From an uncultured Candidatus Saccharibacteria bacterium (lineage in GTDB: Bacteria; Patescibacteriota; Minisyncoccia; Phycocordibacterales; SBAW01), in NCBI GenBank assembly GCA_964349995.1, contig CAYGIN010000001.1, positions 1-39,245 of the forward strand: a DNA stretch of 39,245 nucleotides, written 5' to 3'. Positions within the stretch are counted from its first letter, which is position 1, and each line of letters begins with the position of its first letter. Shown here piece after piece: positions 1 through 19,919 of the stretch. Below the pieces are notes generated by a model. That model worked only from the letters and a program-made list of their open reading frames with translations, was not told the DNA's origin and searched no databases. Position numbers and translations under genes: made by a program.

Positions 1-151
1 AGTACTCCAGAAGGAAACTAGCCGAGATTTGTTGCTGTATAAGAATATCTCGGCTGGACTTCCGCAAATACTTCTTTTTTGAATGTGTGTCAAATTGAGC
101 GTATTTATGGCCTGATTAAAACTATAGAATATGTTTTTTTGATCTATGTTT

Positions 152-232
152 TATAGCAACAGGGCAGGTCGCTATCCGGCGATCTGCCCTTTATTTACAT
201 GACTAGATCGCTGATTCCAAAACATTTTGTCT
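152..232 (+). repeat. Upstream copy of the leader hairpin, start codon and first 11 codons of the giant surface-protein gene
   Basis: Hand alignment with 409..489 gives 77 of 81 nt identical. Mismatches are at 173/430, 197/454, 203/460 and 212/469. Confidence 0.85.
162..196 (+). terminator. Intrinsic-terminator-like hairpin (12-bp stem, 4-nt loop atcc, T tract), upstream copy
   Basis: gggcaggtcgct (162-173) pairs with ggcgatctgccc (178-189), including two G:U wobbles, and is followed by tttattt. Confidence 0.5.
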
Positions 233-282
233 TATCTATTCTCGGCTGGATTTCTGCAAAGACTTTTTTGGATGCGCATTAA
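199..282 (+). pseudogene. Truncated 5' fragment of a giant-surface-protein-like gene (27 codons, then TAA)
   Basis: ATG 199 encodes MTRSLIPKHFV..., matching MIRSPIPKHFV... of the real gene at 456. The frame diverges after codon 11 and stops at TAA 280-282. Confidence 0.5.
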
Positions 283-300
283 ATAACGTATTAACGCATT

Positions 301-322
301 GAGGGCGTATAGAGGGCGTATA
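301..322. repeat. Perfect tandem 11-mer gagggcgtata x2
   Basis: 301-311 equals 312-322. It lies about 80 nt upstream of the TATACT box at 402-407 and could be a protein-binding direct repeat. Confidence 0.6.
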
Positions 323-401
323 TGTGTCATGGTTAAAAGCTATTTTGGATTCTTATCCACACATTATGAATAAAAAGCACTAAAGAATTTGTTTTTAAGC
401 G

Positions 402-407
402 TATACT
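402..407 (+). promoter_or_regulatory. Putative -10 box TATACT for the giant surface-protein gene
   Basis: This is the same hexamer that sits 7-8 nt upstream of many start codons in this window. Here it is 11 nt upstream of the leader hairpin. Confidence 0.35.
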
Positions 408-408
408 C

Positions 409-489
409 TATAGCAACAGGGCAGGTCGCCATCCGGCGATCTGCCCTTTATTTGCATGATTAGATCGCCGATTCCAAAACATTTTGTCT
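409..489 (+). repeat. Functional copy of the same leader and 5'-CDS module, running into CDS 456..4373
   Basis: Same 81-nt alignment as 152..232. This copy continues into the long ORF. Confidence 0.85.
419..453 (+). terminator. Terminator-like leader hairpin ending 9 nt before ATG 456 (possible attenuator or 5' stabiliser)
   Basis: gggcaggtcgcc (419-430) pairs with ggcgatctgccc (435-446), with one G:U wobble and loop atcc, followed by tttattt (447-453). Confidence 0.5.
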
Positions 490-3400
490 CCTCGGTCGAG
501 GCGGCTTCTCAATTTAAAAAAACAAACGATTACATCAGCCTACTGTGCCGACGGGGTTCGGTGCACGGAGTACTCGCGGATACTCAATGGTATGTAGATC
601 CTGCTTCGTTGGTCTTGTACTTTACAAAACAGGAAGAACTTCGCACCCAGCGCCACCAACAGCTTTCGGCAAAGCTTGCCCAAGAGTACAGGCAGCGCGT
701 AGGTGAAGTTTCTAAGCAACCGCTGGTTGTATTGCCGCAAATAAAATTTTATGTGCATGTAGTTGGGTTTGTTACCGGTGCCGCGATGCTGCTTGGCACA
801 CTTGTATTTGCAAGCAGTATGCATGTGCCGGAGCAGAATCAATACGCTGCAATCTCTCAAACCCAATCACCCTTCTTCGGCACGGGGGCGCCATCAGTTG
901 TGTTGCCAACGAGCACAGGTGATGCGTTTGCAGGTGCAACCAATTTTTTCTCAGATGTGTTTGATACGTTCTTCGGCAACGAAACACAAGTTGCGCAGAA
1001 CGTTGTTACCGAACCTGTGCAGAACTCGCCGATTGGTTCTGGGGAACCGCGGACGAATTCTGCTCCGGCATCCGCGACAGTCAGTGTGCCGGGTGTAGCT
1101 GTTTCGTCTCCAGCTGTGATTAACACCTACCCTGTCATCGAGCGCATCGTTGAACGCAGCGTTGCAGTTGGCGGCGTGTCAGAGGAAGATCTCACAGGAC
1201 GTTTGCAGGATCTCTACAACCGCCTTGCAGTACAGATATCTAATCTCCAAAACCCAGGTCGTGAAAGTCCACTGCAAAACTTCGCTGTCTCACAAGTCAT
1301 CAACAACCTTTCAGATGTTCGGCTCAATGGCACCACAAGAGCAGATGGTATTACTGCGTCGTCCGTCACCGCAAGTAGCCTTGATGTCTCCGGCAATACA
1401 AACTTCAGCGGCTTCTTGAATACAGGCACAACAACGGTTAACAGCCTCGTAGTGACTAATCTCTCGACGAGTACGTTTGCGGGTAATCTTGCGGTCACCG
1501 GCGCGACAGCGCTTAGTTCAACACTCGACGTCGCAGGCAACACCACTCTTTCCAACGCTACATCCACCAACTTCTTTTCGTCCGTTGCCTCAAGCACTAA
1601 TTCCTACACACAAAATCTTCAGGCCGCGATTGTCTCATTGGTAAATGCCACCTCGACTAACTTCTTCGCAGGTACAGCTTCATCAACAAGCTTGTTTTCG
1701 CAAGCGGCATCGTTAGGCACGCTTTCTGCGCAGGCATTTACATTATCAGGAATTGGTACGTTTACAGGCGGCTTCCTCTCGCTCGCATCCACTACCATCG
1801 GTGCAGGCACACAAACAACAGGTTTGACGATAAACGGTGGAGCAACAACAACGGGGAATGCATACTTTGCGGGTGGGCTTGGAGTTGGGATTGCAACTTC
1901 TGCTGTAGGAGTGTTGCAAACATCCGGCAACGCCTACATTGGAGGCAACCTGTTTGTGGGCGGGAATTCGGTGACGCTGGGCAACAGCTCTTCAAATACA
2001 TTAGTAATTAACTCTTCGATACAGTCTCATTTGACTCCAGACCAAAACATCACCTACGACCTTGGCTCCTCGTCTTTCTACTGGCGCAATGTGTATGTGG
2101 GTAACATTGTGGCAAATAATATTTCAGCTGCTTCAACGACCATCGCAGGTACCGCATCCGCAACATTCACGCTCAACTCGGACAACGCGACTTCCGATAC
2201 GGAAGACATGGACCTTATCTTCTTCCGCGGCAACGTGGTGCCGAATGGGTTGCTTTCTTGGAAATCCGCCACAGACCGTTTCGAGTTCAATCAATCACTC
2301 TTTATTCAAAACGCTTCAACGGATAATCTCACCGGCGTAACACTCGACCTCAAAGGACTTTCCGGACAAACAGGAAATCTATTCCGCGTCGCATCTTCAA
2401 CAGGAACTGACTTCTTTAACATAACTTCCGCTGGCCTAGTCGGCATCGGCACCACAACCCCAAGCTCACTCTTCTCAGTCCAAGGCAACCAATACACCAG
2501 CGGGTCTGCATTCTTCGGCGGCGCAATTACTGCAACTTCAACACTCGGGATTACAGGCCTTGCAACGTTTACTAACGGCCTGCTTTCTCTCGCTTCCTCA
2601 ACTATCGGCGGCGGTACTCAAACAACCGGCCTCACTATTTTGGGTGGCGCAACAACGACAGGAAATGCGTATTTTGCAGGGAGTATAGGGGTGGGGACGA
2701 CAAGTCCTTCGCAAGCGTTCTCAGTAAACGGTACTATTTATTCAAACACCGGTTACCTCTTTCCAGATGGCACCACACAAACCTCCGCAGCAATCCTAAA
2801 CGGCGCGGGTACAACTGGGCAGATTCCGTACTATGCGAGCGCGGGTACGGCAATCACAGCTACTTCAACTTTGTTTATTTCAACTGCAAGCAATGTTGGC
2901 ATCGGCACGACATCGCCCTGGGGTCTCTTGTCTGTAAATGCAAACGGTATAGGCTCTACACCGCAGTTTGTTATTGGTTCCTCAACCAAGACGGACTTTA
3001 TTGTGACAAATGCGGGGTATGTGGGTATTGGTCTTCCAACAGCAGCAAACCCCCTGTCGATTAGCAAGACTGGAGTTGGCACCCTCGCTTCTTTTTATCG
3101 CTCGGATGCAAACTCAACCGACAACGCAGATATTCTCCTTGGTCGTTCATCTGCTTCCGGACAAAATATTAATTTCAGATATGTATACGATGCATCAAGT
3201 CCGTACCTAAATATCTTTCACGGAGGAGATTCTGCCGGAACAGGACTTGCAGTACTCAAGGGTGGCAACGTCGGTATAGGTACAACGACGCCCTGGGCGC
3301 AACTGTCTGTAAATCCAAACGGCCTCACTGGCCCTGCGTTTGTCATCGGTTCTTCAACTGCGACGAAGTTTATTGTCGACAATAGCGGCAACGTCGGCAT

Positions 3401-4373
3401 AGGCACCACTTCTCCGTTTCGCAAATTCTCTATAACTGATACTGTTTCGACCGCACAGGTGACGGTTGCGTACGACAACAGCCGCTACACCGACTTCCTT
3501 ACCAACTCGGTCGGCGATCTTGTTGTGACCCCGCAAGGTCAAGACATTTTCTCAAACGACAGCAACCTCTGGATCTGTTCTGGCGGTTCGTGTCCGTCTG
3601 GCACGCCGACTGGCACCGGCAATATTGTTGTTGAAAACAATATTGGCATCGGTACCACTACGCCGCAATTCCGCCTTACTATTGAATCTCAGAATGCCAC
3701 TGACAACCTCTTCCAAATCGCGACAAGCACAAATCAGAGCATCTTTGTGGTCAATGCCACAGGCAAAATCGGTGTCGGTACCTCAACGCCAACACAGCAG
3801 TTCTCCATCTCAGATCGCCTCTTTGTTGGCGCAGGAGGAGCATCGGGTATGGGTACTGCAACCTCGACGTTCCAAGGTGACATAAAAATTACCGGCAAAC
3901 TTGATGTCGGCACCATCGACCCTGTGTACACTATCGACGGCGTAAAATACGCAACCTACGGCCATTCGACTATTGGCATCAAGGAAGAAGCGGTTGCGGT
4001 GCTTGAGGTGGCCGACAAGAATCCGGCGACAGGCAAGTATGAAACAAAGATTGACTTCAAAGATTTGGACAAGAGTTCCGACCTTTGGCTCTTCTATCAA
4101 ATCACCGACTTTGGGGAAGACTGGAAAAACTTGGTCATTAACCTGACGGCGTCATTTGACGGTTCGGTCTTCTATACAAAGGTTCCAAACGAGGCAGCGG
4201 TCATTATCTCGTCGAGCGAGCCTGGGGAAGTATCTGCACGCTTTATCGCAAACCGCTTTGACGCAGACAAGTGGCCGAATCTCCGCCCCGACCAAGATGA
4301 CTCCTACACAGGACATGAGCTCCAAACGACGCAAGGTGGGCAGGCGACCAGGCGCTTTGATTTGGCAGAGTAG
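456..4373 (+). CDS. Giant (1305 aa) membrane-anchored, repeat-rich surface protein of the tail-fibre-like or S-layer-like type
   Basis: ATG 456 to TAG 4371-4373.
- The N-terminal ~55 aa look like a small HTH/excisionase-like module (SVEAASQFKKTNDYISLLCRRGSVHGVLADTQWYVDPASL).
- One TM helix follows (VVGFVTGAAMLLGTLVFA), then S/T/G/N-rich repeats.
- Two long internal repeats are present (LSLAS-TIG-GTQTTGLTI-GGATTTGNAYFAG, twice).
- Eight copies of the motif (V/I)G(I/V)GT(T/S)(T/S)P....(F/L)S(V/I) occur, one of them degenerate. Confidence 0.9.
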   Translation: MIRSPIPKHFVSSVEAASQFKKTNDYISLLCRRGSVHGVLADTQWYVDPASLVLYFTKQEELRTQRHQQLSAKLAQEYRQRVGEVSKQPLVVLPQIKFYVHVVGFVTGAAMLLGTLVFASSMHVPEQNQYAAISQTQSPFFGTGAPSVVLPTSTGDAFAGATNFFSDVFDTFFGNETQVAQNVVTEPVQNSPIGSGEPRTNSAPASATVSVPGVAVSSPAVINTYPVIERIVERSVAVGGVSEEDLTGRLQDLYNRLAVQISNLQNPGRESPLQNFAVSQVINNLSDVRLNGTTRADGITASSVTASSLDVSGNTNFSGFLNTGTTTVNSLVVTNLSTSTFAGNLAVTGATALSSTLDVAGNTTLSNATSTNFFSSVASSTNSYTQNLQAAIVSLVNATSTNFFAGTASSTSLFSQAASLGTLSAQAFTLSGIGTFTGGFLSLASTTIGAGTQTTGLTINGGATTTGNAYFAGGLGVGIATSAVGVLQTSGNAYIGGNLFVGGNSVTLGNSSSNTLVINSSIQSHLTPDQNITYDLGSSSFYWRNVYVGNIVANNISAASTTIAGTASATFTLNSDNATSDTEDMDLIFFRGNVVPNGLLSWKSATDRFEFNQSLFIQNASTDNLTGVTLDLKGLSGQTGNLFRVASSTGTDFFNITSAGLVGIGTTTPSSLFSVQGNQYTSGSAFFGGAITATSTLGITGLATFTNGLLSLASSTIGGGTQTTGLTILGGATTTGNAYFAGSIGVGTTSPSQAFSVNGTIYSNTGYLFPDGTTQTSAAILNGAGTTGQIPYYASAGTAITATSTLFISTASNVGIGTTSPWGLLSVNANGIGSTPQFVIGSSTKTDFIVTNAGYVGIGLPTAANPLSISKTGVGTLASFYRSDANSTDNADILLGRSSASGQNINFRYVYDASSPYLNIFHGGDSAGTGLAVLKGGNVGIGTTTPWAQLSVNPNGLTGPAFVIGSSTATKFIVDNSGNVGIGTTSPFRKFSITDTVSTAQVTVAYDNSRYTDFLTNSVGDLVVTPQGQDIFSNDSNLWICSGGSCPSGTPTGTGNIVVENNIGIGTTTPQFRLTIESQNATDNLFQIATSTNQSIFVVNATGKIGVGTSTPTQQFSISDRLFVGAGGASGMGTATSTFQGDIKITGKLDVGTIDPVYTIDGVKYATYGHSTIGIKEEAVAVLEVADKNPATGKYETKIDFKDLDKSSDLWLFYQITDFGEDWKNLVINLTASFDGSVFYTKVPNEAAVIISSSEPGEVSARFIANRFDADKWPNLRPDQDDSYTGHELQTTQGGQATRRFDLAE

Positions 4374-4378
4374 CTCAG

Positions 4379-4386
4379 AGTATACT
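4379..4386 (+). promoter_or_regulatory. AGTATACT -10 box 8 nt upstream of ATG 4395 (leaderless-type promoter of cassette A)
   Basis: The same octamer and spacing occur at 7229, 16393 and 19928. Confidence 0.5.
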
Positions 4387-4394: not shown

Positions 4395-4589
4395 ATGAAA
4401 CACTTGCCTAAACTGTTGGCCCCACTGTCCTTGGTAAGCATATTTGGCTTGTCCGGTATCGCATGGCTCCATACACCGTCTTTACATCAAACGATGTGTG
4501 CAGTTGCAGACAATACTGCTGGAGCGTCTGAACAGCAAAAACATACCGAAGATAGAATATATTTTGTAGGGTGTGGCGGACTTTTCTAA
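4395..4589 (+). CDS. Small exported precursor peptide A (64 aa) ending ...RIYFVGCGGLF
   Basis: It has a Lys-rich n-region (MKHLPK), a hydrophobic core (LLAPLSLVSIFGLSGIAWL), and a polar body with two Cys. A paralog at 16409..16600 keeps the same C-terminal motif using different synonymous codons. Confidence 0.7.
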   Translation: MKHLPKLLAPLSLVSIFGLSGIAWLHTPSLHQTMCAVADNTAGASEQQKHTEDRIYFVGCGGLF

Positions 4590-4602: not shown

Positions 4603-5052
4603 ATGACACATGAAGACCCAAAACAATGGCGCATTGTGCCGACTGTGTATGAGGAGGGAGAGTATGCCGCTCCAATCTCGCACGTTCAAAAAAGTGATTT
4701 TGTGTGGGATGCGCTCGGCCGCTCGCTTGATGCACACAAGCCCCAAGGATTGGGAATTATGCTTTCCTTCGCGTGGCAGCTGCACTTTTATGCATACAAA
4801 GAAGCAAGTGCTCGCGGGATAGTGACCGCGGTTGCAATGCCGACCAATGTCAGCGCGCTGTCGGGGCTTATGAAGTCGGTCCCCATTGAGGCGGTTCTGA
4901 CCACAGAGGAAGGGGCACACGCATTCGTACAAGATCTGCAAGAGGCGGGGATGCTCGAGAGAATAAAGGTGTGGTTTATTGTGTCTCCAAAAGAACGCCC
5001 CAGCTCGTTTGTGGCGCCCGTTGGTACTACCGTGCACGACCTACTTCCATGA
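4603..5052 (+). CDS. Cassette A partner protein (149 aa from ATG 4603; the ORF opens at GTG 4573), function unknown
   Basis: It is a paralog of 16625..17062. There is no signal peptide. The stop TGA 5050-5052 overlaps ATG 5049 of the ligase. By eye, the central part (GIMLSFAWQLHFYAYKEASARGIVTAVAMPTN...PIEAVLTTEEG) weakly resembles the N-terminal subdomain of long ANL enzymes. Confidence 0.75.
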   Translation: MTHEDPKQWRIVPTVYEEGEYAAPISHVQKSDFVWDALGRSLDAHKPQGLGIMLSFAWQLHFYAYKEASARGIVTAVAMPTNVSALSGLMKSVPIEAVLTTEEGAHAFVQDLQEAGMLERIKVWFIVSPKERPSSFVAPVGTTVHDLLP

Positions 5053-6332
5053 ATACTCAGCACACCTTACTGCAGAAAGCGCTCGATTTTGCGCTCGGGA
5101 GTCCGCACTCGGATTTTTATCGCCGTAAATTTGGCCCCTCGTATAAAGAGTATTTCGATAAGCCTATACAAGAAATACCTTTTCTCGTGCGCACAGAGAT
5201 AGACGCCGTTCCTGTATTTGAACGGACGTTTGTTCCGCGGGATATGGTGCGTTTTATACGCTCCACATCGGGTTCCACCGGAAAGAGTGTTATCGGTTTT
5301 CCAATGCTTGAGGAAGGACTGTATCAAAATTTTCTAGGCTTAATTGGATATCAAAAAGAGTCAGGGCAATTGTCGCGCTATTTTGAACCTTATTTTTCGC
5401 AGATGAATATTCGCTCAATGCTTTTGTTTTCTGCGGGTTCGTTTGTGCATGAAGTACGTGTACGAGAAATGGAAGGAAGACAATGTATTGCAGGAGAGTT
5501 TGCACAGCCAAAACTGACAGCAGAGCTTGCAAAGGAAGCGAACATCGAAGCCATTGTTGGTAATCCAAGCGGGCTCGTAGATTTTGCGCCGCACTTAAAA
5601 GCTATAGAAGGAGCAGATACTGTGCGGCTTATTATATCGGTGGGAGAACGTCCTACCTCGTTGCAGTTTGCCGCGCTACAAACTATTTTTCCCAATGCGA
5701 AAATTGCATTGCAGTATGGGCTGACTGAATCGCAAGGATACGTCGGGTACACCTGTCCAGAGAAATTGAGTATAGATCCCAAAGCACTTCATGTAGCCGA
5801 CGGCACATTGTTTATAGAACTTATTGATCCTGACACTGAAGTCGTGCTTCCGCTTTTACCAGGGACTGAGGGTGAACTCGTTGTTACCACGCACGAACCG
5901 CAAGGGTTTCCTCTTATCCGCTATAGAACTGGAGATTTTGTGCGGATCCGCGGGGAATCCTGCGCCTGTGAGGGGAGCCCTCTGTTATTTGAATGTATGG
6001 GGAGGCTTACGCTCGACAGATTGCGGGTACCACATGGGATGCTCACTATCGCTGCAATTGAACAGGCGGTGTCGAGTCTTCCCGGTGTGCAGGAGTTTGA
6101 GGCGAAATGGAATGCCGAGGGTCCGTTGCCGAGGTTGGAAATTTCTCTGTATATGGACAGTGTGAAAAACGGAGAGGGTATATCTATAGATGAACTTGCT
6201 TCACGTATCCGTATTGCACCGAAGGCATCCTATCAAACAATTGTAGAGGAAGGGCGAGTGTTGCCGCTTGAAGTGGTTACTAAACCCTTAGAGCAGTGGG
6301 TCGGATGGAAAAAGAAAAAACGGCTGCACTAA
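5049..6332 (+). CDS. PaaK/F390-synthetase-like adenylate-forming (ANL superfamily) ligase, cassette A (427 aa)
   Basis: ANL motifs are present: STSGSTGKS (P-loop/A3), YGLTESQG (A5), YRTGD (A8), CACEGSP...GRLTLDR, and a C-terminal Lys cluster KKKKR. The N-terminus is laid out as in phenylacetate-CoA ligases (DFYRRKFG...IPFLVRTEI). I chose ATG 5049 (ATGA overlap, conserved in cassette B) over the longer ORF starting at 4971. Confidence 0.85.
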   Translation: MNTQHTLLQKALDFALGSPHSDFYRRKFGPSYKEYFDKPIQEIPFLVRTEIDAVPVFERTFVPRDMVRFIRSTSGSTGKSVIGFPMLEEGLYQNFLGLIGYQKESGQLSRYFEPYFSQMNIRSMLLFSAGSFVHEVRVREMEGRQCIAGEFAQPKLTAELAKEANIEAIVGNPSGLVDFAPHLKAIEGADTVRLIISVGERPTSLQFAALQTIFPNAKIALQYGLTESQGYVGYTCPEKLSIDPKALHVADGTLFIELIDPDTEVVLPLLPGTEGELVVTTHEPQGFPLIRYRTGDFVRIRGESCACEGSPLLFECMGRLTLDRLRVPHGMLTIAAIEQAVSSLPGVQEFEAKWNAEGPLPRLEISLYMDSVKNGEGISIDELASRIRIAPKASYQTIVEEGRVLPLEVVTKPLEQWVGWKKKKRLH

Positions 6333-6785
6333 TTAGTTTGAGAGTGGAAGGAGATCTCCTGCGATTACAGTGCTTGCTTCAAGACGGCTGTGTTCCGCGG
6401 AGTTTGTAAATAGAATAAATATTGTCTCGCCTACAACAAAATCCCATTGTTCAATGGGGAGTATGGAAACACCGCCGATAACTCCGTCTGCACCAGTAGT
6501 TGCACGGACTCGTGTCATGGTCGCATTTGGGGTTATCCAAACTTTTGCGGTTGCTACTCGCCCTGTGCCGGTATCATACGAGAAGGTCATCCATCCTTCG
6601 ACACTATTATTTTCGACCAACGTTCCGGTCTTTCGAATATCTTTGACGATGCTCAGTGTATTTGTTCTTGCTTTTTGATAGTTCGGGTCTTCCGCACCGC
6701 TCGCTTGCATAATGTTAAGTGTGACACTGCCCGCAAGCAACGCAGCAAGAACAAAGAGGAGCGTCAAAGTATTTTTTTGGTTCAT
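6333..6785 (-). CDS. Exported hypothetical protein (150 aa)
   Basis: It has an N-terminal signal or anchor (TLTLLFVLAALLAGSVTL) and a beta-rich body. Its stop abuts the ligase stop with 0 nt between them (convergent). Confidence 0.7.
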   Translation of the reverse strand: MNQKNTLTLLFVLAALLAGSVTLNIMQASGAEDPNYQKARTNTLSIVKDIRKTGTLVENNSVEGWMTFSYDTGTGRVATAKVWITPNATMTRVRATTGADGVIGGVSILPIEQWDFVVGETIFILFTNSAEHSRLEASTVIAGDLLPLSN

Positions 6786-6791: not shown

Positions 6792-7220
6792 TTATTGGGT
6801 TGGGGATGTAAATATCATTATAGCGTAGGGGACTGTTTGTTCCGCGCTGAGCCACAGGATTACGCGTATCCGAAGACCTTCCGTAAGCGTTTTTGCCGGT
6901 ACTGTGTGCACGAGACGCGAATCGACAATAGTGCCTTGCTGGTCCGGCATCAACATCCGCACCAACATTGCAGTGTCTTTGTCGTAGTGGACGAGAATAG
7001 TTTGAGCGGGTTTGAGTGGGTCCTCGTCCTGCGTGAGCAAAAATGAGTCTGCAGAAAGGCTGCTGACAGTGCCACCGACAGGCATAGTTATATTTTTTCT
7101 GGCTCCAATTTGGAGTGCCTCAATATTCCTGCCCGATAAGGCCAATACTCCCATGGTCGATGCGAGTGCGACTCCTACACACACACCGCACACTACCGCC
7201 AGTGCCGAAGAGGCATTCAT
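6792..7220 (-). CDS. Membrane-anchored hypothetical protein (142 aa)
   Basis: The N-terminus is hydrophobic (ALAVVCGVCVGVALASTMGVLAL). The start codon lies 8 nt from the palindromic AGTATACT box. It is the first gene of a two-gene minus-strand operon. Confidence 0.7.
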   Translation of the reverse strand: MNASSALAVVCGVCVGVALASTMGVLALSGRNIEALQIGARKNITMPVGGTVSSLSADSFLLTQDEDPLKPAQTILVHYDKDTAMLVRMLMPDQQGTIVDSRLVHTVPAKTLTEGLRIRVILWLSAEQTVPYAIMIFTSPTQ

Positions 7221-7243: not shown

Positions 7244-8698
7244 ATGCGTACCGTTCGTACTTTCATGTCGGCTCTAGCCCTTTTGTTCGCATGTGTGGTG
7301 TACATGTTTTTACCGCTTGAAACTCAAGACGCTGGAGGCGCGCTTCTTTCGTGTACTGTAATAGGAATAGTATTGCTCGACGCATTTCTGCGGGGGTATG
7401 GGCCGAGTCCGCGTCACTGGCATATGTCACAGTGGCTTGTCGTAGCTTTCGTACTCTCTCTTTTTGTCTCGACACTGTTTTCAAAGAACTATACCCATGC
7501 ACTTTGGGGGTTTTCATTCGATATGACATCAGCGCTATTTCTTTCGTTTGTATTCTGTCTACCGCTTATTGTGGGGACACTCCCTGCCGCGACGCGGAGG
7601 ATATTGTTTATAAGTGCATGTCTGTCGCTCGTACTCCTTGTAGCCTTTCCGCTCATACGATCGGAAGTATATGTTCGACCCTCGCATGAAGCCACTCTAG
7701 GGATTGAGTCTGCATCGTACGCAGAAAATGGAACCCGGGCTCTACTTGTTGGACTCGGACCCAATTCGTTTGTGTATGCATGGCAGATGTATAAACCCGC
7801 GGCGGTGCTTACGACACCATTTTGGGCCGATGATTTTCCCGTTGGAAGTAGTGTCGTTACAACGCTCACTATTGAGACAGGAGTTATAAGCGTCCTCCTG
7901 CTTTTTTTGATATACCTGTCTGCCTGCGCAGAGGAGTTATGGAAAAGTATTGCGGAACAGGTACCACGTGGGAGGAAGTTTTTTTCCAGTCTGTCTGTTG
8001 CGCTTGTGCTTGGGTCTTTTGTTGCTCTTGTATACGCAGAGCCGTCCGCTCCGCTCGTGTTGGTGTCGGGCATACTTCTATCCTCATTCCGGTTTCAAAC
8101 GGAACCGCGGTTGCTCCTGAGTATGTGGGTTCGCCGGGCGGCTATTTTTTTAAGCGTAATTTTTATATGCGTTGTCGTATATATAGCAGTTGCAATTGCA
8201 TTTTATTTTTATGCATTTTCACAGGTGCGCGCGGGGAATGTGCCGTTGGCTCGCAGTACGGGCGAGTACTCATATCAACTCTACAAAAATCCCCAGACCG
8301 CGCGGTTTCTCTCGCAAGTATTCCGGTCACTCGGGCATGAGCTGGGCAGGATACACGCATCGAAAAACACCACACAAGACGCATTCCACACTGCGTCCGC
8401 ATATGCGCGGGCAGCTACACAGTACGAGTCGCAGAACGGACAGAGCTGGAAATTACTCGGCATCAGCCTTGCAGAAGAATTGTCTCTCCAAAAAAACCAA
8501 ATCTTTTCTACTGAAGGTAAAAAAGCTTTTGATACGGCGGTGAAGCGAATTCCTAATGACCCGTCGATTCTCTTTTTTGAAGCGCAACTCTACATACTTG
8601 CGGGGGATCAGGTGGGAGCAAAGAACTTGCTCGAAAAAGCTCTTTTGATGAAGCCTGACTATGTGGAGGCGAGTGACTTGCATGAGGCGATTCAGTAA
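7244..8698 (+). CDS. Polytopic membrane protein with a C-terminal TPR-like region (possibly O-antigen-ligase/polymerase-like)
   Basis: There are many hydrophobic helices and then helical repeats at the C-terminus (...NDPSILFFEAQLYILAGDQVGAKNLLEKALLMKPDYVEA). I chose ATG 7244 over GTG 7115, because the longer ORF would overlap the minus-strand gene. The family assignment is an eyeball guess. Confidence 0.75.
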   Translation: MRTVRTFMSALALLFACVVYMFLPLETQDAGGALLSCTVIGIVLLDAFLRGYGPSPRHWHMSQWLVVAFVLSLFVSTLFSKNYTHALWGFSFDMTSALFLSFVFCLPLIVGTLPAATRRILFISACLSLVLLVAFPLIRSEVYVRPSHEATLGIESASYAENGTRALLVGLGPNSFVYAWQMYKPAAVLTTPFWADDFPVGSSVVTTLTIETGVISVLLLFLIYLSACAEELWKSIAEQVPRGRKFFSSLSVALVLGSFVALVYAEPSAPLVLVSGILLSSFRFQTEPRLLLSMWVRRAAIFLSVIFICVVVYIAVAIAFYFYAFSQVRAGNVPLARSTGEYSYQLYKNPQTARFLSQVFRSLGHELGRIHASKNTTQDAFHTASAYARAATQYESQNGQSWKLLGISLAEELSLQKNQIFSTEGKKAFDTAVKRIPNDPSILFFEAQLYILAGDQVGAKNLLEKALLMKPDYVEASDLHEAIQ

Positions 8699-11684: not shown

Positions 11685-12278
11685 ATGAGTGGCGGTACTT
11701 TTTCCATAGTGTTTCGGGGGTTCTCCACCCTCATTATTTTTTTTGTTGTGTTGTACGCAGTGAGAGTGTCTGCAGCGACACTCACGACAAATGTCACTAT
11801 AACGGGCGCCGCTAGCGTACTTGGAACCCTTTCCAAAGGATCCGGTACGTTCGTTATTGACCACCCACTCGACCCTGCAAACAAACTGCTTTTCCACTCA
11901 TTCGTCGAGTCTCCTGACGTGAAAAACATCTACGACGGCATCGCAACGCTCGACAGCAGTGGGGAAGCAACAATTGTGTTGCCGAACTACTTTCTTGCAC
12001 TCAATAAAGATTTTAGATACTTGGCAACGCCGCTCGGTGCTCCGATGCCTAACTTGCATTTAGGAAAGGAAATACAGAAACGCTGGTTTAACTTCTTTGG
12101 CCCCATTCAATTTAAAATAGTTGGCGGTGCGGCGGGAGGCCGCGTTTCGTGGCAAATAACTGGCATCCGACACGACAAATTTATTGAAGATAACCCTATT
12201 GTGGTTGAAGTAGAAAAATCCGACACGACGTTGGTAAAAAAAGGCGAGTATGTTTCGCCAGAATTATATGCGCAATAA
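11685..12278 (+). CDS. Secreted paralog 1 of a three-gene tandem family (197 aa)
   Basis: It has a signal peptide and a conserved core: SKGSGTFVIDHPLDPANKLLFHSFVESPDVKNIYDGIATLDSSGEATIVLP...RVSWQITGIRHD...NPIVVEVEKSDTTLVKKG. Confidence 0.85.
   Translation: MSGGTFSIVFRGFSTLIIFFVVLYAVRVSAATLTTNVTITGAASVLGTLSKGSGTFVIDHPLDPANKLLFHSFVESPDVKNIYDGIATLDSSGEATIVLPNYFLALNKDFRYLATPLGAPMPNLHLGKEIQKRWFNFFGPIQFKIVGGAAGGRVSWQITGIRHDKFIEDNPIVVEVEKSDTTLVKKGEYVSPELYAQ
11835..11983 (+). repeat. Near-identical DNA block shared by paralogs 1 and 2 (partner 12403..12551)
   Basis: 148 of 149 nt are identical; the only difference is a11969 versus g12537. Flanking coding sequence is strongly diverged. Confidence 0.9.
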
Positions 12279-13573: not shown

Positions 13574-14806
13574 ATGATTAATTTTAAAACACGCCAAATA
13601 TTTTTTATTGTGCTGGGCGTGTTTGTTTTTGGAGGCGTTGCGGTTGCACTGCGCGTACATTCTGTGCAAAAAACACCCGAGGAATATGCCCGCGCTATTG
13701 TCGCCCACTGCGCCGAGGCATCGAATCACACCTCTTGTTATGAACAGGAGGTGCCTAAACTGTTGGTTCAGGGAGTGCGGTTTGAGGATGCGTTTGAGGT
13801 TGCCTATATTATTCAGCAACTTGATCAAACTGGCGAATACTGTCACCGCATAGGACACGAGCTTGGATCCAAGGAAACAGCAAAAGACACAAGCAAATGG
13901 AAAGAAGTTGCGCGCCGAACTCCTTTAGGGAAGTGTCTTGCGGGCGGACTGCACGGTGCCTTCCAGGAGCGTTTTAAACAGGCATCTCTTTCTCCTGCGG
14001 AGCTTCCTTCTTTTGAAAAAGAAATGCAAGGTTTTTGTGATGTTCAGAAAAATATCCCATCGTCCTCCATTGACCTTTCCATGTGTGCACACGGTCTTGG
14101 GCATTTATTTTTGTTTGCAACGGGAGGAGATATCCAAGAGTCAGTGCGCCTGTGTTCGGCAATTGTTTTTAAAGAAGAGGTGGGTGTAACCAGAGAAGGC
14201 CAAGAGTTGTCGTGTTTTGACGGAATGTTTATGCAACTTTTCGAACCGCACGACGCGGAAGAATACGCTCTTATCCAGGGACATGAACAGACTACAGACA
14301 CTGTCGGTGCTTTCTGTACAACTTTTTTACCGTTGCCAAAAGCCGCCTGTGTTGCACGCAGTGCACCCTTGTTTTATAAAAATCTTACTACGGGGGCACC
14401 ACGCCCGCTCGACTGTGGAACACTGACAGGCCAGCGTCAGCAGGACGCTTGTTTTTCGACACAGCTTCGGCTCTTTGCGCGCGACACATTTTTTAATCTT
14501 GATGCCACAGATGACTACTGTGCAACATACCCAGAAAATAAACGCGGGTGGTGCTATGCTTCCGCCGGTTCATTCGCGTTTATGGCAGGGTACGATTATG
14601 AACAACCGTTTCGATTTTGTGCACGAGCAGAAACACTCGGCGTTGGGGATCAGTGCTACGAAACACTGGCGCAGTTCATCCCATTTGTTTTCAGTACTGA
14701 CGAAAAAACTCGTGCCAGTTTCTGCAAACGCCTACCCGCGCCGTATATGGCCAACTGTATATACGCACAGGCCACTAATCCTACTCCTGCGCCCTCCGCA
14801 CAGTAA
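13574..14806 (+). CDS. N-terminally anchored Cys/His-rich repeat protein, family member 1 (410 aa)
   Basis: It has a TM helix followed by repeated C-x(7-15)-C pairs. Motifs include YCHRIGHELG, CLAGGLHG, MCAHGLGH and SCFDGMFMQLF. Paralogs are at 19943, 21201 and 22284. Confidence 0.85.
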   Translation: MINFKTRQIFFIVLGVFVFGGVAVALRVHSVQKTPEEYARAIVAHCAEASNHTSCYEQEVPKLLVQGVRFEDAFEVAYIIQQLDQTGEYCHRIGHELGSKETAKDTSKWKEVARRTPLGKCLAGGLHGAFQERFKQASLSPAELPSFEKEMQGFCDVQKNIPSSSIDLSMCAHGLGHLFLFATGGDIQESVRLCSAIVFKEEVGVTREGQELSCFDGMFMQLFEPHDAEEYALIQGHEQTTDTVGAFCTTFLPLPKAACVARSAPLFYKNLTTGAPRPLDCGTLTGQRQQDACFSTQLRLFARDTFFNLDATDDYCATYPENKRGWCYASAGSFAFMAGYDYEQPFRFCARAETLGVGDQCYETLAQFIPFVFSTDEKTRASFCKRLPAPYMANCIYAQATNPTPAPSAQ

Positions 14807-16385
14807 GAGTGTCTATTAGAGGTTGCATTACTTTATTGTGCGCCTGGATATGCATCGACAAAAGCTCGTCGAGAGAGTACATGTTTTGCAAATCGCGTCG
14901 ATAGGAGAGTAGCGTAAACCCTGTTGGAGGAACTTCATGCTTGGCCACCCCATAAAATAGAGTCGTGTCTCTTCCGAAGGGCCCTGTTTCGTTTGCAAGC
15001 AGTAAAAGTGGTGAAATACCACTGCGAATCATGGCAAATACGTTGGTCCGATAGGAATCAAATACTGCGGTTGTGTACGTACTTGCCTGGAGATCGTCAA
15101 AATACCCAATCATCAGTTCAAATCCAGCGCTACGCGTTTTTGCCTGAAGAGAAAGATCGCGTAGCCTGTGCACCTCTTTTTTTGAACCAAGAAAAAAGAT
15201 GAGGTCTGCGTCAGTTGTGTTTGCAAGGAGCGTGTCGATTTGTGCAATAAGGGCGTCGTAGGTTCCTTGAGAAAGAACCTCATGGGTTAAGAAGATATTT
15301 TGGGCAACGAGTACATTGTGGACGAGGGGAGCGTATGCGCTACTTACCTGTGCAATGGGATTTTTTTGCAGGAGTGCATGCGCATTGTATATGGAAAGCA
15401 GGTCACCAAATTCGCGCCCGGAATCCTGGCAGATGTATACATTGAAAGGTTGATATGAATAGGGAATGCCCGTTGCATATAGCGCCTTACTGAAAGATAC
15501 GGATATTTTGGAGAGATCGTAAAAAAAAGTGTCGCTTAGCAAGGTGACATATACTGCTGTTGTCGATGAAAAGGCCGAAGTGTGAAGACTTACGTCGTAA
15601 TACGTTGGCGAGTACGATGCATAGCAGGAAGATGAGGAGAGCCCCACGGTTGCTGTGTCGCGAAGTCCTTTATTAGATTTCTCGGCGTAGCGGCGGAGTG
15701 CTGACTGAGCGTCCGCGATGGGTTGCGGTGCACGGGCTTGCAATGGAGACGCTATATTTTTTTGTGCAGGCGCACGCACGGAGGTCCATAGAACTTTTTC
15801 TGCACAGCTGGCATCTCTGCCTTCCGCGCACATAAATCGCCGCATCTCTTCTTCACGCATGACCGCAAGTTGCTCTTGCCCCTTTCTCAGGATTTCTGCA
15901 ACATAGGTCGAACTTGTAAATCCTTTGAATGATTGTAAGTTCAAAGGCATTCCAACAGACAAAAGAGCAATTGCATTTGCAAGGTCGTGGTCGTATGCAT
16001 CAAACAAAGACAAGAGAGCGTTGTGGTAGATTTTTGCATTTGAGGCCGATGCATCTGAGAGTACGTTGCGGCGAGCCTCTTCCGTGTTTGGGATGTGTGA
16101 AAGAAAATCCATCGGGTATGCACGTGTGTGGAGGACGCGACTTGGGTCATCTGAAAAAGGGAGCACGGAGATGGCGGTGGTTTTTTTGAATGCCTCAACC
16201 GCCTGTCTTGCCTCACTCACTGACATGCCAGGCATCGCGAGCATCGGGCTCAGTTCATGTATTCGGGCATAGGCGTCCCACCCGCCAATCTGCACTATAG
16301 ACGACGTGTTTTTTTGATATATACCAAGCCCCACAAAAACCAAAAATACCATAAGCAGTATGATGAATTTCTTTACGTGGCGCAT
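14781..16385 (-). CDS. N-terminally anchored hypothetical protein (534 aa), paralog of 18345..19919
   Basis: It has a single N-terminal TM helix. It is alignable by eye with the 524-aa paralog, for example FMCAEGRDASCAEK vs FACFEGDARSCESL, and IGYFDDLQASTY vs LGYFDDLQIGSY. Its 3' end overlaps the convergent gene by 26 nt. Confidence 0.85.
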   Translation of the reverse strand: MRHVKKFIILLMVFLVFVGLGIYQKNTSSIVQIGGWDAYARIHELSPMLAMPGMSVSEARQAVEAFKKTTAISVLPFSDDPSRVLHTRAYPMDFLSHIPNTEEARRNVLSDASASNAKIYHNALLSLFDAYDHDLANAIALLSVGMPLNLQSFKGFTSSTYVAEILRKGQEQLAVMREEEMRRFMCAEGRDASCAEKVLWTSVRAPAQKNIASPLQARAPQPIADAQSALRRYAEKSNKGLRDTATVGLSSSSCYASYSPTYYDVSLHTSAFSSTTAVYVTLLSDTFFYDLSKISVSFSKALYATGIPYSYQPFNVYICQDSGREFGDLLSIYNAHALLQKNPIAQVSSAYAPLVHNVLVAQNIFLTHEVLSQGTYDALIAQIDTLLANTTDADLIFFLGSKKEVHRLRDLSLQAKTRSAGFELMIGYFDDLQASTYTTAVFDSYRTNVFAMIRSGISPLLLLANETGPFGRDTTLFYGVAKHEVPPTGFTLLSYRRDLQNMYSLDELLSMHIQAHNKVMQPLIDTLTVRRAQE

Positions 16386-16392
16386 AGAAACA

Positions 16393-16400
16393 AGTATACT
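16393..16400. promoter_or_regulatory. Palindromic AGTATACT box centred in the 23-bp gap between divergent starts 16385 (-) and 16409 (+)
   Basis: It lies 7 nt and 8 nt from the two ATGs. TTTACG at 16372-16377 could serve as a -35 for the plus direction with a 17-nt spacer. Confidence 0.55.
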
Positions 16401-16408: not shown

Positions 16409-16600
16409 ATGACAAAGAAGTTTTTCCTCATGGTGGCGGTGATACTTTCTTTTTTTGGGGTAGGACTTTTTCCTTCGAAAGCCACTGACACTTTCTGCGC
16501 TCTTCCGACTAACGCTGAAGGTCTCTACTCTAAACAAACACAGGGTCAAACAAGCAATTCAGCCCGCGTCTATCAAGTCTGGTGTGGTGGTATTTTTTGA
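16409..16600 (+). CDS. Small exported precursor peptide B (63 aa) ending ...RVYQVWCGGIF
   Basis: MTKK followed by the hydrophobic core FFLMVAVILSFFGVGLF, then a polar body with two Cys. Its position and C-terminal motif match peptide A. Confidence 0.7.
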   Translation: MTKKFFLMVAVILSFFGVGLFPSKATDTFCALPTNAEGLYSKQTQGQTSNSARVYQVWCGGIF

Positions 16601-16624: not shown

Positions 16625-17062
16625 ATGCATGATGGCCACATAGTAACGCGGGTGGTTCCTGAGGATTGGACTGATGCGTCCTCGCGCATACTTTTTATGC
16701 CAAATGACGCTTCTTGGAACACGCTTGGACGTATGCTTGATGAGACACATCCTAAATGTATTGGGATTCTGCTTCCCCTCGTATCTCAATTGCATAGATA
16801 TGTGTATAGGGAAGCAAGAGCGCGTGGCATCACCGTTGCACTTGTTCCACCCTCAAACGCGATGGTACTCACAGGTCTTATGGAAGAGGTTCCTATTGAA
16901 GCAGTTGTCGCAGACGAACATGGCGCTCGTCTATTTGCTGAAGATCTTCAACACATGGGGCTTCTCTCGCGTGTCCGCGGTTGGCTCATTATTTCTCCTA
17001 AAGGAAAGGAGTCATCCTACGCACCTCAGTTTGGGGTTGTGTTTCGAGACTCATTTCTATGA
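16625..17062 (+). CDS. Cassette B partner protein (145 aa from ATG 16625; the ORF opens at GTG 16610)
   Basis: It is a paralog of 4603..5052, for example WNTLGRMLDETHPK vs WDALGRSLDAHKPQ, and VPIEAVVADEHGARLFAEDLQHMGLL vs VPIEAVLTTEEGAHAFVQDLQEAGML. TGA 17060-17062 overlaps ATG 17059. Confidence 0.75.
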   Translation: MHDGHIVTRVVPEDWTDASSRILFMPNDASWNTLGRMLDETHPKCIGILLPLVSQLHRYVYREARARGITVALVPPSNAMVLTGLMEEVPIEAVVADEHGARLFAEDLQHMGLLSRVRGWLIISPKGKESSYAPQFGVVFRDSFL

Positions 17063-18342
17063 CACCACTTTCTCGAGCTCTATCATTTGCGATTGAAAAT
17101 CCATATTCCGATTTTTATCGGAAGAAATATGGTGCTAAGTATCATGCATATATGCGGGGAAATTTTTCTAGCATCCCGCCACTTGTCCGCGACGATATTG
17201 ACGCGGTGCCACTGTATGAGCGCATTTTTGTTCCAAAGGAGATGGTGCACCTTGTTCGCTCAACATCAGGTTCCTCTGGGCGCCGCGTCACTGGATTCCC
17301 AATGGTCGAAGAACCTGACCTTGTGCAATTCCGCATATCAATTGGTTTTACAAAGGAGGAAGCAGAATCGGCGCGCTACTTCAGTTCTTATTTTAAAATG
17401 AATGAAGTATTCAGTCTCCTTTTATTTTCATTAGTAGGCGTTGTGCACGAGGTGGATCTCAGTGACGTCAACGGAGGTCGCGTCACTATGGTTGACATAA
17501 AATATCCAGAACTCACTGCGCGCCTTGCAAAAGAGGCACAGGCTGACGCGATTTTTATTTTTCCATCACCGCTGTTGCTGCTTGCGCCAGAGCTTACTCG
17601 GGCCGGTGTTGCGGGGCAGATTAAACTCATACTCCTTGTAGGGGAGCGCATGATTGAATCGCAGAGACTCGCTATCGTGGAAGCATTCCCAGATGCACGT
17701 ATTGAGAATATATATGCATCAACAGAATCCCAGGGCATTGCCGCACAGACCTGTCCGCTGTTTCATACAAAAAAACCGAACCTTATACATCCAAATAACA
17801 CCTATCTATTTGAGCTCCTGCCTTCGAGTGGAGACGAGAGCCTTCCGCTTTCTGTAGGGCAGGAAGGTGAGGTAGTCCTTACCACATTGCTTCCCGTGGT
17901 TTTTCCACTGATTCGTTTTAGAACCGGGGACTATGCTGTAGTTCGTCAAAACGGGCTGTGCGCGTGCGGTAGCCCTGCGCCCCTCGTTGAGATTCTTGGG
18001 CGTGTTGAACTTGATCGTATAAAAATCCCATTTGGAGGCATTAGCGTCGCTGCGCTTGAAGAAGCGGTGCGCTCCCTCCCTCTTCCCGTTAGGGATTTTA
18101 GCGCTGTATGGATTGAGAACGAAACTATTCCACGTCTTGCTATCTCTGTGTATACAGACGAAATAATTCCAAGCTCATTTGCAGATATTGTCGCGAAAGC
18201 GTTAAAGATAAATTCTGAGGAAAGCTACTTTGCTATTTGGGGAAAAGGTGCGGTTGGGGAGTTAACGCTTGCCCGGGAGGAAGTTTCGTCACTGGAGTTT
18301 CTTCGCTCGGGTAAACGGAAACGATTACATATTCAACGATAG
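17059..18342 (+). CDS. PaaK/F390-synthetase-like adenylate-forming ligase, cassette B (427 aa)
   Basis: Motifs: STSGSSGRR, ASTESQG, FRTGD, CACGSP...GRVELDR, and C-terminal GKRKR. It has the same length as the cassette A ligase. Confidence 0.85.
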   Translation: MTPLSRALSFAIENPYSDFYRKKYGAKYHAYMRGNFSSIPPLVRDDIDAVPLYERIFVPKEMVHLVRSTSGSSGRRVTGFPMVEEPDLVQFRISIGFTKEEAESARYFSSYFKMNEVFSLLLFSLVGVVHEVDLSDVNGGRVTMVDIKYPELTARLAKEAQADAIFIFPSPLLLLAPELTRAGVAGQIKLILLVGERMIESQRLAIVEAFPDARIENIYASTESQGIAAQTCPLFHTKKPNLIHPNNTYLFELLPSSGDESLPLSVGQEGEVVLTTLLPVVFPLIRFRTGDYAVVRQNGLCACGSPAPLVEILGRVELDRIKIPFGGISVAALEEAVRSLPLPVRDFSAVWIENETIPRLAISVYTDEIIPSSFADIVAKALKINSEESYFAIWGKGAVGELTLAREEVSSLEFLRSGKRKRLHIQR

Positions 18343-18344: not shown

Positions 18345-19919
18345 TTATTGAAGTATTGTGCGTCGCGCTTTCAATTCAGTAATAAGGTCAGAAAAAGCTT
18401 TATGACGTGCGACGATATCCGCAGCAAATAGCTGGCGCTCATTTAAAAATCCTGCTTGGTGTACGAGAGTCGTTGAGAGCGGTCGGATGGGAATTTCTGA
18501 ATCCTTAAACGGGTCAATACTGTATATGCGTTTACTCAGCAGGGAGTGTCCACTTGGAAACACCGTCTCATTATCAAGCGCATATAACTGCGACAGTCCA
18601 CCGCGCGTAATAAGAAAAACACTCGGAGGGGAGGGGTTTAACCTGTATGGAATGTAGCTTCCTATTTGCAAGTCATCAAAATACCCAAGTACTAAATCAA
18701 GGCTTGAACTTTTTGCCCGAGCTTCAGTTACCCGCTCTGCAAGTTTTATCACCTCCTCTCTCCCAAGGCTTTGTATGAGGGAGGTAGGGTCTGTTTTCCG
18801 TATTGTAAATATGGCAGCGTTAAGATATGCGTTGTACTCATGTTCTTGAAGCAACAACGGTCGCATAGAGAATTTCTCGGAAGCAGTTTGAAGATCACGG
18901 AGGGTTCTTGTGGAGAAACCTGTCGGCGTACTCGGCGCGCTGAGTAGCGTCTTGGACAGATTTGCCATGCCGAGAATCCTCCCCACATCCATACCGAAAT
19001 CTGGGCACATATATGCATTAAATGGCTGGAATGTAAGAGTTACGCCTGACGCATGCAAAAGCTTGTAGAATGGGTGAGTGCTTGATGCGGTGTTTTCAAC
19101 ATAGAGCCGGTTGAGATACACGACGTGTGCCCCAGGCACTTCAGAGAGCCGCGATGGTTGCACTGTAAGCGCAAAATATGCTGGCGTATCATTAAAACAC
19201 GAAGAATTTTCGATTACGAATATAGGAGAGGTTTCAATTGAAGGGTATATGACAGAAAGTGGATATGTATTCTTTTGAACAACTTCCGTTTCGTATGTTC
19301 TGTTGCTGGTTTGATATAGTTCGCCGAAATTAAATTGTAGCTGTAGTAGTGATTCGCATGAACGTGCGTCTCCCTCAAAACAGGCAAACCTCCGGTCCTC
19401 TTTCTTCAATGCAGTAGCGTTGGCGCGCAGTGCTTCTGTAAGTATTGTTTGAACAGAGTCTCCGGTATTTTGGCCACTGAAGTATTGATACACGTTTGGA
19501 TTTTTATCCAAAGAAAGTACTGCGTCAGCCCCATGAAGGTCGTGTTCATGTGCCAGAAGGAGCGCATATAGTTTTTCATGGTACGTTCTTGCATGAGCAG
19601 GAGAAGGGTCTGCAATAAGTACTCGACGCGCTTCTTCAGCTTCGGGAAGCGTCCTTAAAAAACGGAAAGGGTAGATAGCTTCTTTTGCCTCCTTGTTTTC
19701 AGGGAACATGGGTACGGCTGCTTTTGCAGATAGTTCGAAAGCATCCAGAGCTTTTCGAAACGCACGCATATCGGTCCCAGGGAACGCGTATAGTGGGTCA
19801 AGTAATTGACGGTTGGCGTATTCCACAGCAGCTCTCTGAGGGTCAGACATAGTATGTTGCAATAGAACCGCAACAATACCCATTGCACACAACAGAATTA
19901 CAACTTTTAGTGTCCGCAT
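18345..19919 (-). CDS. N-terminally anchored hypothetical protein (524 aa), paralog of 14781..16385
   Basis: It has a single N-terminal TM helix. Its stop lies 2 nt from the ligase B stop (convergent), and its start lies 8 nt from the palindromic box at 19928. Confidence 0.85.
   Translation of the reverse strand: MRTLKVVILLCAMGIVAVLLQHTMSDPQRAAVEYANRQLLDPLYAFPGTDMRAFRKALDAFELSAKAAVPMFPENKEAKEAIYPFRFLRTLPEAEEARRVLIADPSPAHARTYHEKLYALLLAHEHDLHGADAVLSLDKNPNVYQYFSGQNTGDSVQTILTEALRANATALKKEDRRFACFEGDARSCESLLQLQFNFGELYQTSNRTYETEVVQKNTYPLSVIYPSIETSPIFVIENSSCFNDTPAYFALTVQPSRLSEVPGAHVVYLNRLYVENTASSTHPFYKLLHASGVTLTFQPFNAYMCPDFGMDVGRILGMANLSKTLLSAPSTPTGFSTRTLRDLQTASEKFSMRPLLLQEHEYNAYLNAAIFTIRKTDPTSLIQSLGREEVIKLAERVTEARAKSSSLDLVLGYFDDLQIGSYIPYRLNPSPPSVFLITRGGLSQLYALDNETVFPSGHSLLSKRIYSIDPFKDSEIPIRPLSTTLVHQAGFLNERQLFAADIVARHKAFSDLITELKARRTILQ

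Follow-up and report, generated by a model that had tools for sequence, protein, structure and literature searches.

What becomes of a short, apparently secreted peptide that ends four residues after a cysteine and is encoded next to an ATP-dependent ligase? The question arises twice in the 39,245-nucleotide contig CAYGIN010000001.1 of an uncultured Candidatus Saccharibacteria bacterium, which was analysed over its whole length and is called the window here. CPR/Patescibacteria have tiny genomes and are largely uncultured, and few secreted effectors or natural-product pathways have been assigned to them. An earlier, sequence-only reading of this DNA had proposed that the ligase activates the free C-terminal carboxylate of the peptide and closes a thiolactone onto the cysteine, giving a signal like the autoinducing peptides (AIPs) of Agr systems without the protease AgrB. 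The explanation that we favour, and to which we give an even chance, is broader: the window would contain two paralogous copies of a Paceibacteria (CPR/Patescibacteria) module in which two proteins, F2 and the ligase F0, modify the C-terminal tail of the peptide. That the peptide is the substrate, which of its atoms is activated and what becomes of the product are points that we infer from the sequences.

The window encodes two peptide-ligase modules

The two modules and their presumptive control sites are arranged as follows.

4357..4386, + strand: promoter-like site TTGATT-18-TATACT, ending 8 nt 5′ of the pep1 ATG
4395..4589, + strand: pep1, a 64-aa precursor with a signal-peptide-like N-terminus, Cys35 and Cys60; sequence MKHLPKLLAPLSLVSIFGLSGIAWLHTPSLHQTMCAVADNTAGASEQQKHTEDRIYFVGCGGLF, then stop
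4554..4589, + strand: conserved C-terminal motif of pep1, R-I-Y-F-V-G-C-G-G-L-F-stop
4603..5052, + strand: F2-1, 149 aa, ANL-subdomain-like, without catalytic motifs
5049..6332, + strand: F0-1, a 427-aa PaaK-like ligase whose start overlaps the F2 stop (ATGA)
16372..16400, + strand: promoter-like site TTTACG-17-TATACT, ending 8 nt 5′ of the pep2 ATG
16409..16600, + strand: pep2, a 63-aa precursor ending in RVYQVWCGGIF-stop (ARVYQVWCGGIF, then stop), cluster P0001 of the collection
16625..17062, + strand: F2-2, a 145-aa paralogue of F2-1 (47% identity)
17059..18342, + strand: F0-2, a 427-aa PaaK-like ligase, paralogue of F0-1 (42% identity)

Both peptides are real and end as the sequence-only reading had described, with a Cys codon (4572-4574 in pep1, 16583-16585 in pep2), four further residues and a stop (4587-4589 and 16598-16600). 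The absence of an AgrD-type C-terminal tail was also confirmed, the stop following directly on the short CGG tail. The peptides are paralogues of each other (30% identity, E=1e-6), and other contigs show the same arrangement of genes around P0002, a homologue 92% identical to pep1. Each N-terminus has a basic n-region, a hydrophobic stretch of 18-22 residues and then small-residue sites (e.g. PSKA/TD), which we read from the sequence as a Sec-type signal peptide; the mature peptide is predicted to comprise about 35-45 aa. The segment of the peptide that is the candidate substrate of F2 and F0 is ERVYFVGCGGLF.

Upstream of the peptide genes, a TATACT-like box lies 8-15 nt 5′ of the ATG and is kept in seven Adlerbacteria-type loci, and the form (A/T)GTATACT precedes the peptide start codons in the window and in L003, L004, L006, L007 and L008. 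Each box in the window has its -35-like hexamer, and the interval between box and ATG is free of any Shine-Dalgarno sequence. A conserved box so near the start, together with the missing Shine-Dalgarno sequence, suggests leaderless or near-leaderless transcripts of the peptide operons, and the pep1 mRNA is likely to have no leader or a very short one.

Gene callers begin F2 at the GTG of position 4573, so that it shares 17 nt with the end of pep1 (4573-4589); the aligned F2 homologues speak instead for the ATG at 4603. The pep1 peptide is missing from the protein collection that we searched, in which small ORFs are poorly represented; given this and the early F2 start, pep1 has probably been missed by public annotations. 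A profile built from the two peptides retrieved two clusters only in a word-indexed protein search, scans of JGI metagenome contigs with profiles of the peptide (A5) and of F2 (A4) yielded nothing that was confirmed, and no family in Pfam or NCBIfam covers the peptide.

A conserved tail and two cysteines define the peptide family

We identified 11 distinct homologues of the peptide on other contigs, in Adlerbacteria-, Nomurabacteria- and Kaiserbacteria-like genomes, all of which retain the tail h-[YFL]-x-[VIL]-[GWST]-C-G-G-h-[FYI]. Family members are 60-76 aa long and have exactly two cysteines, the second lying 13-29 residues upstream of the motif Cys. The Cys-x4-stop geometry on which the sequence-only reading was built extends to ten of the 11 distinct peptides and breaks down in a Nomurabacteria-type clade (L016/L094, L095), whose members end in CGGFIQ-stop and are therefore Cys-x5. 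The codons of conserved residues vary synonymously (TGT and TGC for Cys, all four codons for Gly), and TAA, TAG and TGA all serve as the peptide stop at the same position, indicating selection on the protein and on its C-terminal end. The type of peptide (G-C or W-C) tracks the clades of the ligase. Among approximately 19,500 stop-to-stop ORFs of at least 25 aa in the collected loci, 13 unrelated ones end in CGG plus 1-4 residues, none of which has the other features of the family.

Several simpler accounts of the tail were rejected. A spurious ORF is ruled out by the codon pattern, a lipoprotein by the residues before the first Cys, which form no lipobox, and cleavage of a double-glycine leader by the position of the GG, 2-3 residues from the end. 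A general sorting signal was discarded as well, the tail being found on no other ORF of the window.

The tail bears directly on the proposal that the ligase adenylates the C-terminal carboxylate and that the Cys four residues upstream attacks it, producing a five-residue, AIP-like thiolactone signal without AgrB. We regard this combination of thiolactone and AIP signal as plausible, at a probability that still makes it unlikely. The Cys-x4-COOH end of ten of the 11 peptides and their hydrophobic or aromatic, AIP-like last residues agree with it, the Gly-Gly pair would favour ring closure, the neighbouring enzyme is an intact adenylate-forming ligase of the aryl-acid clade, and GrcB, discussed below, offers a precedent for an ATP-driven thiolactone in a ribosomally synthesised peptide (RiPP). 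The Cys-x5 clade, however, departs from this geometry, a simple five-residue ring does not account for the second invariant Cys, and the three to four ligase paralogues per peptide in some relatives exceed what one ring closure needs; these same features count against the simplest model of tail modification. Moreover, the predicted mature length of about 35-45 aa is not that of a 7-12-aa signal, and no AgrC/AgrA-like or other kinase, regulator or receptor was found in the window. The earlier remark that no cognate sensor kinase is visible thus holds, Pfam scans of the window ORFs having returned no kinase, response regulator or AgrB, and with the long mature peptide, the second Cys and the CGGFIQ clade this leaves an AIP-type signalling role without support.

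F0 is an intact PaaK-like ligase

The enzyme beside the peptide had been taken for an ATP-dependent ligase, and our analysis agrees: F0 is a PaaK-like member of the ANL superfamily with its catalytic motifs intact. The seven aligned sequences contain the P-loop A3 STSGS[ST]G[KR], A5 Y[GA][LS]TE[ST]Q, A8 YRTGD and A10 K[KR]KR, so adenylate formation should be possible. Matches to PF00501 are weak, both for F0-1 (E=5.6e-7, 29.1 bits, just below the gathering cut-off of 29.9 bits) and for F0-2 (E=3.6e-3, 16.6 bits), and scores against the NCBIfam models of the DVU_1553 type, FlxY and PaaK are far under their cut-offs. For PaaK proper (TIGR02155 / NF041878) they reach 43.7 bits where the cut-off is 646.3, and 52.8 where it is 700, which places F0 outside this equivalog. 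Profile matches in the PDB are to phenylacetate-CoA and PaaK-like ligases, down to E=2.6e-19, and neither ligase gave a LuxE match in Pfam at E≤0.01. F0 belongs to an aryl-acid-activating clade. A close relative, with 78% identity in the ligase, is found in a Candidatus Adlerbacteria MAG.

The nearest CPR ligases at greater distance (25-29% identity; Saccharibacteria- and Paceibacterota-type MAGs: L013 4977-7939, L014 2798-5888, L015 2618-5462) have neither F2 nor peptide. They adjoin or overlap polytopic proteins of 520-558 aa with N-termini that look, by eye, like apolipoprotein N-acyltransferase (Lnt), and ligase and Lnt-like protein may form a conserved ligase-acyltransferase pair. This hints that the wider clade of ligases has a function connected with lipids or acyl groups.

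The usual reaction of PaaK-like enzymes is to activate a small acid and hand it on to a thiol, and LuxE is a precedent for acyl transfer to a protein. The peptide could accordingly be an acyl acceptor, the ligase activating a separate aryl-acetic or fatty acid and transferring it to the thiol of the G-C-G-G Cys or to another nucleophile, to give an acylated secreted or anchored peptide. We consider this rather unlikely. It would keep to the usual small-acid-to-thiol chemistry of the family, with the peptide taking the place of CoA or a carrier protein and its Gly-flanked Cys possibly threading a pantetheine-type tunnel; the multiple ligase paralogues of remote clusters could load different acids, and the Lnt-like neighbours of related CPR ligases are in keeping with it. 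Yet acylation leaves the exact C-terminal end and the conservation of the terminal aromatic residue unexplained, an acyl group held by a thioester would be unstable once outside the cell, and it is doubtful that Sec would export a peptide carrying a lipid.

F2 resembles an ANL subdomain

Between peptide and ligase, F2 has no match in Pfam or NCBIfam, a PDB profile search with its sequence returned nothing meaningful, and a search of the sequence for catalytic ANL motifs found none. Its AF2 model (pLDDT 78.5), by contrast with these sequence searches, has its best PDB fold matches in PaaK1, BT_0428, 4-coumarate ligase (4CL) and luciferase, with a top E of 3e-4 and a TM score of 0.6 on the query. 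Since the hhalign match between F2 and the ligase is weak and partial (probability 35%), an origin of F2 as a duplicated ligase subdomain is suggested by the fold and not proven. We describe F2, which resembles a subdomain of the ANL N-domain, as a putative adaptor or pseudo-enzyme subunit.

Searched exhaustively with HMMER, 1.84 billion representatives yielded only about ten close F2 proteins, about 25 more remote ones (255-290 aa) and a single protein of 549 aa (P0047), in which an F2-like domain is fused to a ligase. This fusion argues that F2 and F0 act together, and most likely they constitute one enzyme.

Peptide, F2 and ligase are inherited together

The order peptide-F2-F0 is constant in all Adlerbacteria-type loci, with tight gaps and overlapping stop and start codons. 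Every contig retrieved through F2 (from Logan, ENA and NCBI assemblies) has, immediately upstream, a small ORF ending in ERVYx[VIL][GW]CGG[LIT][FY]-stop. In addition, all five loci that were collected through remote F2-like proteins alone (approximately 20-25% identity) hold a homologous peptide, in an arrangement that changes from locus to locus, either divergent or downstream of the ligase. These peptides end in QEVYFVGCGGFF (L092), NQMYFVGCGGFF (L093), NQLLFVSCGGFIQ (L094, which is the L016 region of a Nomurabacteria MAG, and L095) and SDIFFLTCGGIY (L096, Kaiserbacteria-like), each followed by a stop. The peptide HMM matched in every locus with F2; about 75 loci with a PaaK-like ligase but no F2 gave no match.

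Such strict co-occurrence over a large evolutionary distance upholds the link between peptide and ligase that had been drawn from the window. The peptides in all loci fetched through F2, their absence from the roughly 75 loci lacking it and the fused F2-ligase together support this link well, and we think it probable, from these comparisons, that the ligase acts on the peptide.

In the remote clusters, each peptide is accompanied by 3-4 ligase paralogues. Another ANL pair, split in a different way into an N-terminal piece of 191-254 aa and a piece of 368-371 aa, adjoins the same peptide in L092 (1775-3470) and L095 (2757-4630, equal to L016 1825-3692), with a P-loop visible in the 368-aa copy of L016; this points to several ligase systems per precursor in these clusters. 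In L093 only, a flavin-dependent oxidoreductase (2563-3666, Pyr_redox_2 / Lys_Orn_oxgnase-type) is encoded between peptide and ligase genes. The Kaiserbacteria-like locus L096 has a Dlt-like set (52-3185; ACP, AMP-binding ligase and MBOAT, with a phosphopantetheinyl transferase upstream) directly 5′ of F1-F2.

The modules lie among genes for secreted envelope proteins

Families of neighbouring proteins were obtained by clustering the neighbourhood proteins of eight loci. Those next to the modules in the window are listed here.

6333..6785, - strand: F5, 150 aa, N-terminally anchored, conserved downstream neighbour
6792..7220, - strand: F6, 142 aa, N-terminally anchored, conserved downstream neighbour
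7244..8698, + strand: F7, a 484-aa polytopic membrane protein with a C-terminal TPR, conserved in Adlerbacteria-type loci
13574..14806, + strand: F3, a Cys-rich secreted protein, with paralogues at 19943-21190, 21150-22274 and 22284-23507
14781..16385, - strand: F1, 534 aa, anchored by its N-terminus and containing four nearly invariant Cys; divergent from pep2
18345..19919, - strand: paralogue of F1, 524 aa

A lenient Pfam scan (E≤1) of F1, F3, F5, F6 and F7 gave weak, sub-threshold TPR matches in F7 as its sole result, and none of the five could be placed in a known family. F1 proteins (approximately 440-577 aa) co-occur with the module in most loci; profile searches against Pfam and the PDB found no meaningful match for them, and an AF2 model from the alignment of the two window paralogues reached a pLDDT of 35. 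The F1 member in the ligase operon of L092 (3473-4789) has neither the N-terminal anchor nor the four conserved Cys, and judged by these missing features it is apparently a cytoplasmic form of an otherwise extracytoplasmic protein. F3 accompanies the module in four of the eight clustered loci, and the family flanks the peptide-ligase module in L004, L006 and L092; a 366-aa protein in L016 (8957-10057) is F3-like by eye. F3 proteins have repeated C-x-HG-x-GH-like motifs, and might be metal- or peptide-binding partners.

Many proteins encoded in the first ~24 kb of the window bear a signal or anchor and match no family. Three tandem paralogues of a secreted protein (11685-12278, 12250-12825 and 12806-13570; also L008 7260-9235) share the near-identical core GSGTFVIDHPLDPANKLLFHSFVESPDVKNIYDG and have no Pfam match, and the third (12806-13570) contains the Tyr/Gln/Pro-rich repeat YYQGYYQPYYQP. 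Directly 5′ of pep1, a very large anchored surface protein (456-4373; also L003 132-5756) carries many degenerate G-N-V-G-I-G-T-T-(T/S)-P repeats; compared by eye with its counterpart in the Adlerbacteria MAG, the C-terminal ~400 aa look well conserved and the repeat region differs greatly in length (1305 versus 1874 aa). Other genes of the window encode a transketolase split in two genes, GAPDH and RpiB, a content that, with the many unassigned secreted proteins, agrees with a CPR bacterium of small genome.

The association of peptide and ligase is the basis of our case; most neighbours are secreted envelope proteins, and the peptide could belong with them and not with the ligase. It would then be a disulfide-looped envelope peptide that binds a partner such as F1 or F3, while F2/F0 would serve envelope or lipid metabolism by activating a small molecule, and only co-regulation would connect it with the peptide. 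Exactly two cysteines in an exported peptide would suit a disulfide, and the many signal- or anchor-bearing proteins of the first ~24 kb, as well as the co-occurrence of F1 and F3 with the module, are what such an arrangement would lead one to expect. We nevertheless judge it improbable, as peptide and F2 pair one-to-one in distant lineages and through rearrangements, peptide, F2 and F0 are translationally coupled, and the tail, confined to the two peptides among the proteins of the window, is no general sorting signal.

A model for modification of the peptide tail

In the tail-modification model that we prefer, F2 would dock the conserved, β-strand-like V-Y-x-V segment of the peptide, and the Gly-Gly pair would allow the thin tail into the active site of the ligase. 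The motif is best fitted by a chemistry in which the terminal aromatic residue would have its free carboxylate adenylated, since this residue, the Gly-Gly spacer and the fixed stop all suit carboxylate activation, and the enzyme is of an aryl-acid-activating clade. The acyl-adenylate would be captured by a nucleophile, either the thiol of Cys(-5), giving a thiolactone, or an external amine or alcohol. ATP would be spent on the tail in the cytoplasm, and the modified peptide would subsequently be exported by Sec and lose its signal peptide.

A fully specified version, which is unlikely to be right in every part, has a PaaK-like ligase guided by the pseudo-ANL partner adenylate the peptide C-terminus and the Cys four residues upstream trap it as a thiolactone. 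This would be a warhead or signal, or an intermediate that is resolved by the second Cys or an external amine into a macrocycle or conjugate.

The module has the general features of a RiPP system: a short precursor beside a modifying enzyme, a conserved core with a variable remainder, and inheritance of both together. The literature that we searched on ANL- and PaaK-dependent RiPPs, on CPR quorum sensing and on PDB entry 9S3L does not describe this system, and no ANL enzyme is reported there to activate a peptide C-terminus. The module appears to be undescribed and restricted to Paceibacteria-type CPR bacteria, and it probably represents a RiPP-like class that is new and found in Paceibacteria only.

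A conserved secreted peptide is thereby tied to a family of ATP-dependent ligases that has not been reported, in the literature searched, to act on ribosomal peptides, making it a candidate both for new chemistry, namely C-terminal activation by an ANL enzyme, and for a molecule displayed by these episymbionts to hosts or neighbours. If the model is true, F0 would be the first ANL enzyme to activate a peptide C-terminus, the pseudo-ANL partner F2 would be a new type of substrate-recognition subunit, and the RiPP class would be confined to episymbiotic CPR bacteria. If the thiolactone is also true, Cys-to-C-terminus rings would have evolved at least twice, with different energy sources.

Comparison with known systems

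The AgrD/AgrB system of Bacillota resembles the module in its ribosomal peptide with a Cys five residues from the would-be C-terminus, its hydrophobic end residues, the removal of an N-terminal segment by signal peptidase and, possibly, a thioester ring. However, the module peptides lack the charged C-terminal recognition tail that AgrB removes. Pfam scans of the window ORFs found no AgrB, the sole polytopic protein (7244-8698) showing only the weak, sub-threshold TPR, and no HisKA, HATPase_c, response-regulator or LytTR match. The leader is a classical Sec signal peptide in the module and amphipathic in Agr; the mature peptide is much longer and has another invariant Cys, and an ANL ligase would supply the energy from ATP.

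A parallel in energetics is GrcB, a ThiF-like adenylyltransferase that forms an ATP-driven, AgrB-independent thiolactone on the RiPP GrcA, linking Glu35 to Cys39 in reverse orientation to AIPs (PMC12250964). Both systems have ATP-dependent activation of a peptide carboxylate beside a Cys near the C-terminus, independently of AgrB, in the module by proposal. GrcB is E1/ThiF-like with an RRE domain, whereas the module has an ANL enzyme and the window has no ThiF match; a Sec signal peptide on GrcA is not mentioned (PMC12250964). With this precedent, the novelty of the concept would be limited to the enzyme family and the orientation of the ring.

Signal-peptide-bearing RiPPs (bufferins, DAG-RiPPs), whose precursors use a Sec or lipoprotein signal peptide, are modified in the cytoplasm close to the C-terminus before export by the general secretion machinery (PMC13056109). 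The module shares with them the secretion signal on the precursor and, in our model, a tail modified before export, but they rely on MNIO oxidases instead of an ATP-dependent ligase, and the module peptides have no lipobox.

Ubiquitin-like proteins, ThiS/MoaD and Pup likewise combine a Gly-Gly near the C-terminus with an enzyme that adenylates a polypeptide carboxylate. In the module, by contrast, the GG is not terminal and two or three bulky residues follow it, there is no β-grasp domain, the enzyme is ANL and not E1-like or PafA-like, and the peptide is exported. The tail of mycofactocin MftA, which ends in CGVY, also resembles that of the peptides. A mycofactocin-like pathway was rejected, the window having no radical-SAM or Mft family match among the proteins sought (MftC, the RRE protein MftB and the peptidase MftE).

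Finally, PaaK and PaaK-like ligases (PDB 2Y27/2Y4N, 4R1L, 9S3L, 6SIW; COG1541) share the fold-defining ANL motifs with F0 and are its best matches in the PDB and NCBIfam, whereas F0 is paired with a separate F2 and always encoded with a precursor peptide. Missing features or scores thus exclude identity with Agr, the PaaK equivalog, LuxE, ThiF-type systems and mycofactocin. Its enzyme family does not figure in RiPP maturation in the literature searched, but the module is most like a RiPP pathway whose leader is a signal peptide.
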